DNA of 41,272 nucleotides from an archaeon (lineage in GTDB: Archaea; Nanobdellota; Nanobdellia; Pacearchaeales; GW2011-AR1), in NCBI GenBank assembly GCA_030699005.1, contig JAUYLQ010000018.1:1-41272 (forward strand), in the 5' to 3' direction. Below the pieces are notes generated by a model, which saw only the letters and a list, made by a program, of their open reading frames with translations, did not search any database and had not been told where the DNA came from. This document shows, in pieces, positions 3,050 through 17,087 of this stretch. Each line of letters begins with the position of its first letter. The first letter of the stretch is position 1. A program made the translations under genes and the position numbers.

Positions 3050-3165
3050 TTTTTAAAATAACGAGAAAAAATTTCCCGCTAATGCGCTAAGTTGTCTCAA
3101 CTCGCAGGTAAACTTTCGAGATTAGTTTATTTTATAAATGTTTGTGTTATCTGAATTTTAATTAA

Positions 3166-3277
3166 GTGGATTTGCTGAAGGCTGTTAATATTCTTTGGCT
3201 TACCCGCAAAATAAAAACTGGCGTGGATGTGCCGGATGTCACCAATATTCTTTGGTTCGTCCAGCACTCTCGATAGT
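3166..3277 (+). repeat. Two tandem 55-57 nt units, each carrying a copy of the 5' end of tRNA-Leu(CAA) followed by a CCAA-N6-TTGG hairpin/palindrome
   Basis: The degenerate copy GTGGATTTGCTGAAGG is at 3166. The exact copy GTGGATGTGCCGGA is at 3223-3236. The real tRNA starts at 3278. The hairpins are GTTAA-TATTCT-TTGGC (3184-3199) and ACCAA-TATTCT-TTGGT (3241-3256). Confidence 0.85.
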
Positions 3278-3360
3278 GTGGATGTGCCGGAGTGGTCAAA
3301 CGGGAGGGACTCAAGATCCCTTAGCTTATGCTTACCTAGGTTCGAATCCTAGCATCCACA
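3278..3360 (+). tRNA. tRNA-Leu(CAA), class II with a long variable arm
   Basis: Hand-folded cloverleaf: acceptor GTGGATG/CATCCAC, anticodon stem AGGGA/TCCCT, loop CTCAAGA, variable arm TAGCTTATGCTTAC, T arm CTAGG-TTCGAAT-CCTAG, discriminator A. Confidence 0.9.
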
Positions 3361-3454
3361 TAGAATTTTGATTTGAACCATGTCTTGGTCAATTGAATCC
3401 CGAAAATCTTTTGGCATTATCCTTACAAATTTCAAGATGGCAGTAGTTTGAGCC

Positions 3455-3475
3455 AGCATCCACATAGAATTTTGA
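3455..3475 (+). repeat. Direct repeat of the 3' end of tRNA-Leu(CAA) plus trailer
   Basis: AGCATCCACATAGAATTTTGA occurs at 3351-3371 and again at 3455-3475. The preceding AGTTTGAGCC resembles a decayed T arm (GGTTCGAATCC). Confidence 0.85.
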
Positions 3476-3665
3476 CTTTAAAGTCTTGGGTTTTTCACTC
3501 GCATTCTCGTCCAAAATTTCATTCCTAAAGGGTGTTACTTCTTAAAAAGACCATTACTCCAAAATCTTTAAATTTCCAAAATATCTCTAAATTTTAGAAA
3601 TTGTTACCTTTCTTGAATTACTACCGGAGAGAAAGGTTTATAAGTAACTATTAAGTGGTAAACAA

Positions 3666-16193: not shown

Positions 16194-16205
16194 TTACATT
16201 AAAAA

Positions 16206-16297
16206 TGCGTCGGCCGGGATTCGAACCCGGGTCAACTGGTCACTTCGCAATTTAATTGCCTGGAAGCCAGTTATACTGACCACTGTACTACCAACGC
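16206..16297 (-). tRNA. tRNA-Gly(TCC) with a 20-nt intron at the canonical 37/38 position
   Basis: Acceptor GCGTTGG/CCGACGC, anticodon stem ACTGG/CCAGT, loop CTTCCA|A. The intron is GGCAATTAAATTGCGAAGTG (plus-strand 16241-16260). T arm CCGGG-TTCGAAT-CCCGG. Confidence 0.85.
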
Positions 16298-16311
16298 ACA
16301 TATCTAATTAC

Positions 16312-16761
16312 TCAGATTTTCTTTAATAAACTTTTTTGTTTTCTTAAAAACTCCTTATGGGGAGGGGCCGTATTCTCAGGAATATCTTTACGAAAGTTGA
16401 AATCTTCAGATTCTTCATTAAGTTTAACTTCAACGGACAAAGGTTCCGCAAGAAATACAAGCGAAACAGAGTGCCTCTCGAATCCGAGAACTTTTTCATG
16501 AGGAAATTCTATGTAACCTAAAAATTTCTTTATTTCAATGTTTAAACCTGTCTCCCTTTTTGCGATTCGTTTTCCAGCCTCCTCAAGACTCTCATTTAAA
16601 AGGACACCTCCTCCTGGCAAGTGCCACATTCCTCTAAATGGTTCAATAGCTCTTTTTGTGAATAAAATCCCCTCTTTAGACTTAATCAATAAATCTATTG
16701 TTAAGCGGGGAACTCTTGAATAAATTGATTTAAATTCTTCATGGGAAAATTCTTTTGGCAT
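16312..16761 (-). CDS. NUDIX hydrolase
   Basis: Nudix box 'GGGVLLNESLEEAGKRIAKRETGL' (GX5EX7REUXEEXGU-like). Confidence 0.8.
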   Translation of the reverse strand: MPKEFSHEEFKSIYSRVPRLTIDLLIKSKEGILFTKRAIEPFRGMWHLPGGGVLLNESLEEAGKRIAKRETGLNIEIKKFLGYIEFPHEKVLGFERHSVSLVFLAEPLSVEVKLNEESEDFNFRKDIPENTAPPHKEFLRKQKSLLKKI

Positions 16762-16798
16762 TTAAACCTGAAAAGAAATGCCTTAATAAAATTTTTGG

Positions 16799-16816
16799 AC
16801 GCCCGAGGCAGGATTT
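16799..16816 (-). repeat. Direct repeat of the 3' end of tRNA-Arg
   Basis: ACGCCCGAGGCAGGATTT occurs at 16799-16816 and at 16867-16884. The second copy is the T-loop/acceptor 3' strand of the real tRNA. Confidence 0.85.
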
Positions 16817-16867
16817 TGCCCTTTAGGGTACACCTTGTGTGGCACCTGCGAGCAGGTTCTTGAAAAA

Positions 16868-16942
16868 CGCCCGAGGCAGGATTTGAACCTGCGACCTACG
16901 CATTAGGAGTGCGTCGCTCTATCCAGGCTGAGCTACCCAGGC
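16868..16942 (-). tRNA. tRNA-Arg(CCT)
   Basis: Acceptor GCCTGGG/CTCGGGC (with G-U pairs), D arm GCTC..GAGC, anticodon stem ACGCA/TGCGT, loop CTCCTAA, T arm GCAGG-TTCAAAT-CCTGC. Confidence 0.88.
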
Positions 16943-16946
16943 AAAT

Positions 16947-17029
16947 TGCGAGGACTAGGATTCGAACCTAGGTAAGGATAAACCACTAGAGCCTTAATCT
17001 AGCCCGTTTGACCACTCCGGCATCCCCGC
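16947..17029 (-). tRNA. tRNA-Leu (class II); the anticodon loop TTAAGGC reads AAG in the canonical register
   Basis: Same length (83 nt) and arm layout as the Leu(CAA) gene. Acceptor GCGGGGA/TCCTCGC, anticodon stem CTAGA/TCTAG. Lies 4 nt upstream of tRNA-Arg. Confidence 0.85.
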
Positions 17030-17050
17030 ATGTACGATGATGATGGATGA

Positions 17051-17087
17051 GCCAAAGAATATTGGCGACCTCCGGCATCCCCGCATG
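17051..17087 (-). repeat. Partial copy of the tRNA-Leu 5' end plus a CCAA-N6-TTGG hairpin, 55 nt upstream of the real 5' end
   Basis: CTCCGGCATCCCCGCATG occurs at 17015-17032 and 17070-17087 (plus strand). The hairpin GCCAA-N6-TTGGC is at 17051-17066. Confidence 0.85.

Follow-up and report, generated by a model that had tools for sequence, protein, structure and literature searches.

Transposons and MITEs are recognised by terminal inverted repeats, by target duplications of fixed length (14-15 bp in casposon-like duplications) and by copies that are dispersed, in a lineage that has a transposase or Cas1. An integrative element would encode an identifiable integrase or be moved by one, would have relatives or attP sites on viruses or plasmids, and would show constant repeat borders set by a fixed crossover region. 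Archaeal bulge-helix-bulge introns carry two 3-nt bulges, with a 4-bp helix between them, at their splice sites, and trp-type attenuators and T-box leaders switch between alternative pairings of their segments (1:2/3:4 versus 2:3). In Nanoarchaeum equitans the tRNA genes are reportedly leaderless, as Randau et al. are said to have described in 2008. RNA processing in that archaeon is covered in PMC3491384. Integrative viruses, plasmids and islands leave partial copies of tRNA genes as attL and attR (van der Gulik et al. 2023, PMC9897764), and the archaeal tyrosine recombinases have been reviewed (PMC8371274).

Although tRNA genes are highly conserved and well studied, we find that in one clade of archaea they carry small structured cassettes at their ends, which are built from the gene's own terminal sequence in both orientations. 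Full-text literature searches in a limited collection returned no description of such cassettes. Like att-site copies, they place a direct repeat of the tRNA end on either side of inserted DNA and leave the intact gene functional; arrays can occur at one tRNA, and presence differs among relatives. Unlike att-site elements, the inserts measure 40-110 bp and have neither an ORF nor a linked recombinase (the two recombinase genes of the host are not adjacent to cassettes), their repeat borders vary, they hold a complementary strand tailored to the tRNA, and their 5' families are amino-acid-specific. In contrast with transposons and MITEs, the palindrome is internal rather than terminal, there are no copies apart from tRNAs, and an interior strand co-varies with the target. 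Compared with bulge-helix-bulge introns, a self-complementary tetramer is found in the Leu and Phe cassettes but not in the Ser cassettes, and the flanking helices are absent. As in N. equitans, most tRNA genes of the host have a box at a fixed distance and would start at or near tRNA +1, but the host keeps an RNase P RNA gene, and a subset of its genes appears to have a long structured leader between the start and the tRNA. As in attenuators, three to four segments of cassette and tRNA are predicted to pair in two exclusive, near iso-energetic ways, but the cassette leader lacks a terminator, leader peptide, specifier or other sensing element, and the downstream "gene" is a tRNA.

The reading that we favour, with a probability of about one half, is that the units at the locus studied here are tandem "self-copy hairpin cassettes", specific to this lineage and situated between the promoter and tRNA-Leu, which would be a tolerated, self-folding leader repeat and not a required part of the tRNA, and which would grow, shrink and be homogenised through their direct repeats.

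Two tandem cassettes precede the tRNA-Leu(CAA) gene

The window, by which we mean the whole stretch of 41,272 nucleotides that was analysed, comes from an assembly of 570 kb in 60 contigs with 34% G+C, and archaeal ribosomal protein genes adjoin its tRNA-Leu(CAA) locus. Since related contigs are labelled as Nanoarchaeota or Woesearchaeota MAGs, we take the host to be a DPANN archaeon. The features of the locus and of a second site in the window are as follows.

3130-3139, + strand: TATA-like box TTTTATAAAT, a putative promoter 27-36 nt 5' of the first cassette base
3166-3222, + strand: cassette A (distal, older), with a decayed copy of tRNA nt 1-14, an inner hairpin and a linker ending in ATAAAAACTGGC
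3166-3179, + strand: copy A of tRNA nt 1-14, 11/14 identical
3184-3199, + strand: inner hairpin of cassette A, GTTAA / TATTCT / TTGGC
3223-3277, + strand: cassette B (tRNA-proximal), with an exact copy of tRNA nt 1-14, a three-tier hairpin and a linker
3223-3236, + strand: copy B of tRNA nt 1-14, 14/14 identical
3241-3256, + strand: inner hairpin of cassette B, ACCAA / TATTCT / TTGGT
3258-3267, + strand: 3' strand of cassette B, CGTCCAGCAC, from predicted folds
3278-3360, + strand: tRNA-Leu(CAA) gene (Rfam, 58 bits; ARAGORN gives 3277-3361)
3361-3454, + strand: 3' module whose family also occurs after tRNA-Gln(TTG), Leu(TAG), Met and Ser(TGA)
3455-3481, + strand: repeated tRNA 3' end with the adjoining 18 nt of trailer, a direct repeat of 3351-3377
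16800-16867, - strand: 3' module after tRNA-Arg(CCT), with a 17-nt copy of the tRNA 3' end at its end (16800-16816)
17030-17084, - strand: Leu-type cassette (68.9 bits) 5' of tRNA-Leu(AAG), whose nt 1-15 it repeats exactly

A first-pass annotation, made from the letters of the window, had reported that the 5' end of tRNA-Leu(CAA) recurs upstream of the gene. The first 14 bases, GTGGATGTGCCGGA, are indeed present exactly at 3223-3236 and 3278-3291, at a spacing of 55 nt, and the decayed copy that it had placed further upstream, GTGGATTTGCTGAA at 3166-3179, has 3 mismatches and lies 57 nt from the next copy. Matches to the 14-mer with at most 3 mismatches numbered 5 in the window, compared with a mean of 0.93 in shuffled windows. 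The palindrome that had been noticed after each copy (GTTAA-TATTCT-TTGGC and ACCAA-TATTCT-TTGGT) was likewise found at both positions. The further claim that similarity to the tRNA runs on into the D-loop (TGTCACCAA versus GTGGTCAAA) did not hold up, since the similarity between the cassette interior and the rest of the tRNA was not significant against shuffles (P = 0.10-0.65); the stretch of the cassette in question forms the 5' side of the inner hairpin, which is conserved.

With a covariance model, R1, that was built from nine Leu cassettes, cassette A scored 55.8 bits and cassette B 66.1 bits, and the predicted fold of cassette B has an energy of -21.0 kcal/mol (z = -3.7). Its inner hairpin is closed by an A-U pair where other members of the family have G-C, and its 3' strand has the same complementarity to the real tRNA 5' end as to copy B. 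When Rfam 15 was searched over 3100-3560, the tRNA was the sole match and everything else had E >= 1.7, so the cassettes correspond to no known RNA family.

On the other side of the gene, the module at 3361-3481 is the mirror image of the 5' cassette design. The repeat that brackets it (3351-3377 and 3455-3481), which the first-pass annotation had missed, spans 27 nt at 93% identity, with its copies 104 nt apart, and the module at 3361-3454 is 86% identical over 57 nt to the module after tRNA-Gln(TTG).

Elsewhere in the window, at 619-1873 and just past the rps9-rpl13-rpl18e operon, a gene for a Xer-like tyrosine recombinase (276 aa) overlaps a 145-aa ORF at the latter's start. The product of this ORF weakly matches the "Recombinase" domain of serine recombinases.

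The same layout recurs at other tRNA genes of the host

The first-pass annotation had proposed a survey of the tRNA genes of this genome and its relatives, and such a survey found the same cassette layout at further tRNA genes. When the flanks of all host tRNA genes were inspected, 5' cassettes were also present before Leu(AAG), Leu(TAA), Ser(TGA), Ser(GCU), Ser(GGA) and Phe(GAA), with two units each at Ser(GCU) and Phe(GAA). Copies of the tRNA 3' end were found 45-120 nt downstream of the Phe, Gly(GCC), Arg(CCU), Leu(CAA), Gln(UUG) and Ser(UGA) genes, and in decayed form at Thr(CGU). A pattern confined to this one locus, the outcome that the first-pass annotation had named as speaking against its idea, is thus not what we saw, since the pattern recurs at many tRNAs in many genomes.

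We then scanned the host, a congener (G007) and a genome from another genus of the family (G024) systematically for each tRNA's own terminal 14-mer, allowing at most 2 mismatches within 250 nt of the tRNA. The 5' 14-mer recurred upstream of 6/26 tRNAs in the host, 4/27 in the congener and 0/30 in the other genus, and the 3' 14-mer recurred downstream of 5/26, 8/27 and 0/30 tRNAs, respectively. Wrong-side controls gave 1 match, to a neighbouring paralogous tRNA-Ser, and 0. Cassette interiors had no copies that we could find apart from tRNA genes; a 16-mer match on contig C49 was set aside as a chance match inside a coding region.

The 3' modules mirror the layout of the 5' cassettes: after a spacer comes a stretch with complementarity to the tRNA's T-arm/3' strand, then one hairpin or two, and the tRNA 3' end is repeated last, in a copy that reaches 0-25 nt, often 8-25 nt, into the trailer. 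One family of 3' modules is common to tRNAs of differing identity, namely Leu(CAA), Gln(UUG), Leu(UAG), Met and Ser(UGA). In the congener G007, 3' units also form perfect tandems, such as two 73-nt units after Arg(CCU).

Outside the window, at ~13,890-15,958 of contig C54 of the host genome (G000), a tRNA-Met gene is followed by a 1.9-kb insert with ORFs of 252 aa and 296 aa, the latter with a DDxxD-like motif. The insert is followed by 14 nt that exactly repeat the tRNA 3' end, then by a 3' module of the Leu/Gln family and finally by another copy of 9 nt. This arrangement may be a cargo-bearing relative of the small modules.

Cassette stems show compensating changes

Four elements make up a 5' cassette, namely a direct copy of tRNA nt 1-14/15, a conserved core hairpin, a strand that is complementary to the copy and so amounts to an inverted copy, and a single-stranded linker of 5-15 nt. 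All of those examined, whether of the Leu, Ser or Phe type, are predicted to fold into a closed irregular hairpin, in which the copy of nt 1-15 provides the 5' strand of the closing helix, its partner lies near the 3' end of the cassette and the unpaired linker runs on to tRNA +1. The core reads GTC(R)CCAATAT..TTTGG(Y)TC(R)TCCA in Leu cassettes and AAGCAGGAC...GTCCTTCGCAAATGCT in Ser cassettes, and the Phe cassette is distinct from both. In most of the ~35 cassettes collected, which cover at least 14 acceptor sequences, the copy equals nt 1-14 of the neighbouring tRNA, and rare D-stem variants appear in both copy and tRNA (GCCAGA at L088, GTCGGA at L103).

In an alignment that was fitted to the model and whose sequences are related to one another, 89.7% of stem cells were paired, compared with 81.2 ± 1.1% in shuffles, and 29 cells were double changes compared with 10.6 ± 2.5 in shuffles, a value that 0/500 shuffles reached. 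The first pair of the inner hairpin (19-96) is formed in every sequence, as G-C in 16 and as A-U in 8. The outer 3' strand pairs better with the copy in its own cassette than with the copies in other cassettes (29/5000 permutations). The orthologous Leu(TAA) cassettes illustrate compensation, with GTGG/CCAC in the host versus GTTGG/CCAAC in G007, and the G007 cassette stays paired though its copy no longer matches the tRNA. G-U and A-C mismatches are equally frequent in the modelled pairs (10 each), and therefore do not tell apart which strand or molecule is under selection; in folding calculations the sense strand was more stable than the antisense strand in 21/28 cassettes. Conservation of the core across genera is greater than expected for a neutral repeat, unless the cassettes spread laterally or detection was biased to conserved copies.

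We also considered whether the units are remnants of a tandem tRNA-Leu duplicate, whose upstream copy would have kept the promoter and shrunk to a mini-helix with both acceptor strands. The Phe cassette does resemble tRNA-Phe to ~nt 38, the order GGTTCG-TCC-AGCA in the Leu cassette follows that of the T-arm and 3' acceptor strand, a second unit in G161 has tRNA nt 1-15 and 17-32, and a copy in G016 extends to nt 21. We nonetheless consider such an origin improbable: the alignments are suggestive but the interior similarity is not significant, as reported above, the pairing of copy nt 8-15 has no tRNA counterpart, and four Leu isoacceptors whose acceptor stems differ have one homologous core, an outcome that independent decay would not yield.

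Promoter-like boxes precede the cassettes

In 13 of the 16 cassette-less tRNA genes of the host, a TATA-like hexamer starts 29-36 nt before +1, with examples at 16205-17030 of the window, an arrangement that implies leaderless or near-leaderless transcription for most host tRNA genes, probably as in Nanoarchaeum. The cassette-bearing genes have no TATA-like box within 70 nt of +1, and in 5/6 of them a box is found 29-37 nt before the first cassette base (42-61 nt at Phe). This arrangement does not fit the "stuttered promoter" duplication that the first-pass annotation had considered, in that no TATA-like box occurs inside the units or within 70 nt of the tRNA +1.

Since the distance from box to first cassette base equals the distance from box to +1 in cassette-less genes, we infer that a structured leader of 112 nt, with its own start site, precedes tRNA-Leu(CAA) and would be cleaved by RNase P. 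The host has an RNase P RNA gene (133.6 bits, C11:1645-1960), and therefore such a leader could be removed. This gene is located ~400 nt from the cassette-bearing tRNA-Phe. Among the interpretations in the first-pass annotation, "decoy acceptor strands in a long leader" comes nearest to our data: a box precedes the first unit and the units are most likely leader, and each copy is predicted to be paired inside its own hairpin.

If the units are a tolerated leader repeat, as we favour, transcription would begin near the first base of the first cassette, and each cassette would fold as it is made, such that its decoy 5' strand would be occupied before the tRNA 3' strand emerges; RNase P would then cut away the leader. 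The hairpin would be kept because an unpaired decoy 5' strand or anti-5' strand would disturb folding of the tRNA.

The position of the box could also be read in another way, in which the tRNA's real first exon is the copy, an intron for the archaeal splicing endonuclease comprises the remainder of the cassette together with the second copy, and the tRNA is leaderless and needs no RNase P. The +1 of the copy falls where the +1 of leaderless tRNAs falls, and the repeat has, shortly before its end, a self-complementary tetramer (CCGG at Leu nt 10-13, AGCT at Phe nt 9-12) that would fit the central helix of a bulge-helix-bulge. This palindrome is missing from Ser cassettes, however, as are the flanking helices from the predicted folds; the host has an RNase P RNA gene, and decayed copies (cassette A and those at the G007 Leu AAG and TAA genes) would be unable to give a working tRNA. 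We therefore regard splicing as very improbable.

The precursor has two competing predicted folds

Modelling of the leader structure, another check proposed in the first-pass annotation, bore out the pairing of the copy within its own hairpin but also revealed that the full precursor is bistable in a nearest-neighbour energy model, with an alternative fold that makes the acceptor stem from the copy and not from the real 5' end. In this model, which ignores tertiary structure, the alternative fold lay -5 to +2 kcal/mol from the canonical one in the nine precursors that were folded. At the locus studied here, the minimum-energy fold has copy B as the acceptor strand, with the real nt 1-21 paired with the cassette. 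Since bistability arises automatically from a direct-inverted-direct layout, "self-insulation" of the cassettes would rest on the order of co-transcriptional folding and on tertiary contacts that are not modelled. The near-equal predicted folds leave room for a regulatory or folding-switch role.

We accordingly weighed whether the cassettes are a functional RNA device that, as a folding switch or as a mimic of the acceptor stem, helps tRNA-Leu, Ser and Phe to mature or controls this step. A switch would have one state in which the copy pairs with the complement and the real 5' strand with the 3' strand, and a second in which the complement pairs with the real 5' strand and the copy with the 3' strand. 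The compensatory conservation of stems across genera, the tailoring of the outer stem to its own tRNA and the greater stability of the sense fold in 21/28 cassettes are in keeping with such a device, as are the near iso-energetic precursor folds, which resemble those of attenuator-type leaders, and the presence of a cassette at all Leu genes found in the host and in G007. In contrast, orthologous genes in the close relatives G009 and G012 lack a cassette, copies decay while the tRNA stays (G007 Leu AAG and TAA), there is no evident ligand, protein partner or sensing element, and any direct-inverted-direct arrangement is bistable anyway. On balance, a device of this kind seems rather unlikely.

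If the cassettes are transcribed, pre-tRNAs with two competing folds would raise questions about co-transcriptional folding and substrate choice by RNase P, and would bear on the shift between leaderless and leader-bearing tRNA genes.

Unit number varies among congeners at the orthologous Leu(CAA) site

Flanked by the rpl18e operon and a conserved downstream gene, the orthologous site holds 2 units in the host, 1 in each of G007, G003 and G022, and 0 in G009 and G012. The unit is decayed in G005 and of a longer type in G011, and G016, G008 and G004 have long, deleted and empty forms, respectively. In the cassette-less G009 and G012, a promoter-like box lies ~24 nt before +1. The tail of cassette A, ATAAAAACTGGC, is identical to that of the single G003 cassette, and cassette B is like the G022 and G007 units; therefore either an ancestor had both units or units have been added beside the tRNA. 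In arrays, the distal copy is decayed as much as the proximal copy or more, never less.

Under the reading of a tolerated leader repeat, the 14-15 nt direct repeats would permit slipped-strand or unequal recombination by which units are added or precisely deleted, and the same recombination would hold the proximal copy identical to the tRNA while distal copies decay. Slippage on 14-nt repeats accounts for homogenisation of the direct copy but not for the complementary strand keeping pace with it. It is conceivable, if doubtful, that the cassettes represent a new kind of element made of a direct and an inverted copy of the end of a structured-RNA gene, which would be either a two-state pre-tRNA leader or trailer, acting as a folding switch or acceptor-helix mimic, that governs maturation of particular tRNAs in organisms whose other tRNAs are made leaderless, or a micro-element that spreads by a copy process in which the target tRNA gene is the template for both strands of the closing stem.

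The differences among congeners in presence and absence are also what would be expected if the units were miniature integrative or mobile elements, or their scars, inserted at the 5' or 3' part of a tRNA gene by a site-specific recombinase or a transposase, in which case the repeat would be an att core or target-site duplication. Integration into tRNA genes is classically recognised by partial copies of the tRNA at the borders of the element (PMC9897764). One family of 3' modules occurs at Leu, Gln, Met and Ser tRNAs, a 1.9-kb two-gene insert separates tRNA-Met from a 14-nt copy of its 3' end, and the genome encodes two tyrosine recombinases. However, units of 55-73 bp are too small for plausible recombination circles. 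The 5' repeats extend from between ~-10 and +1 to between +8 and +21, and the 3' repeats reach 0-25 nt into the trailer, borders too variable to fit a fixed crossover or a target-site duplication of set length. The complementary strand inside each unit is tailored to its tRNA and cannot arrive with an inserted element, the 5' families are each tied to one amino-acid type, no copies were found apart from tRNAs, two 3' module motifs had no match in a viral contig collection, and neither Cas1 nor reverse transcriptase was found in the 79%-complete assembly. We judge a mobile element unlikely. Recombination as the origin, which the first-pass annotation had raised in the form of scars, is possible, but a simple att or target-site scar fails to account for the co-varying complementary strand and the compensating stems.

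Should the cassettes be repeats at the level of DNA, they would provide a clean natural system in which to follow how very short direct and inverted repeats evolve in concert, as well as a caution for tRNA annotation and for island finders based on att sites.

Two further candidate origins were rejected. A casposon, CRISPR-like or retro-element origin was discarded since the "spacers" are homologous between loci and the assembly yielded no Cas1 or reverse transcriptase at the completeness given above, and a homing-nuclease cassette of the GIY-YIG type was discarded since, of 12 GIY-YIG loci fetched, only 1 has any tRNA nearby. Small stand-alone GIY-YIG genes (81-104 aa, e.g. C8:7886-8068 of G000) occur in most genomes of the genus; a GIY-YIG match of some size was present in 18/22 genus genomes, and sampling of two further genera of the family gave none.

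Leu cassettes occur in several genera of one archaeal family

With model R1, the Leu cassette was detected 5' of genes for Leu CAA, TAA, AAG and TAG, in at least 6 genera of one Woesearchaeota-type family. The model matched 8 of the 105 family genomes sampled and 0 of 45 genomes from other families of the order. A scan of all GTDB species and of metagenome contigs with a degenerate pattern hit only contigs labelled Nanoarchaeota or Woesearchaeota, or unlabelled environmental contigs. A strict Leu pattern, when applied to 40 relatives, had no match outside the host genome, such that the covariance model was required, and the exact Ser-type pattern was confined to the host genus among 201 family genomes.

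Several variant arrangements were seen in these genomes. At L075 (contig C25 of G019), two near-identical Leu-type cassettes stand in tandem 5' of tRNA-Leu(AAG), from which a run of N separates them. A different leader hairpin, GGGAAACC..GGTTTCC followed by ATTAT or TAATAG, lies directly 5' of some tRNA-Leu genes, as at L010 (tRNA-Leu(CAA) of G010) and also at L102, L110 and L111; it has no copy of the tRNA end and is at times located between a Leu-type cassette and the tRNA. Second-unit types with longer tRNA copies were found at L078 (G161, 5' of tRNA-Leu(TAG)) and at L114/L116. One of these consists of nt 1-15, an insert of ~55 nt and nt 17-32, and another of nt 1-21 plus a 39-nt tail, so that they resemble partial tRNA duplicates with an insert in the D-loop.
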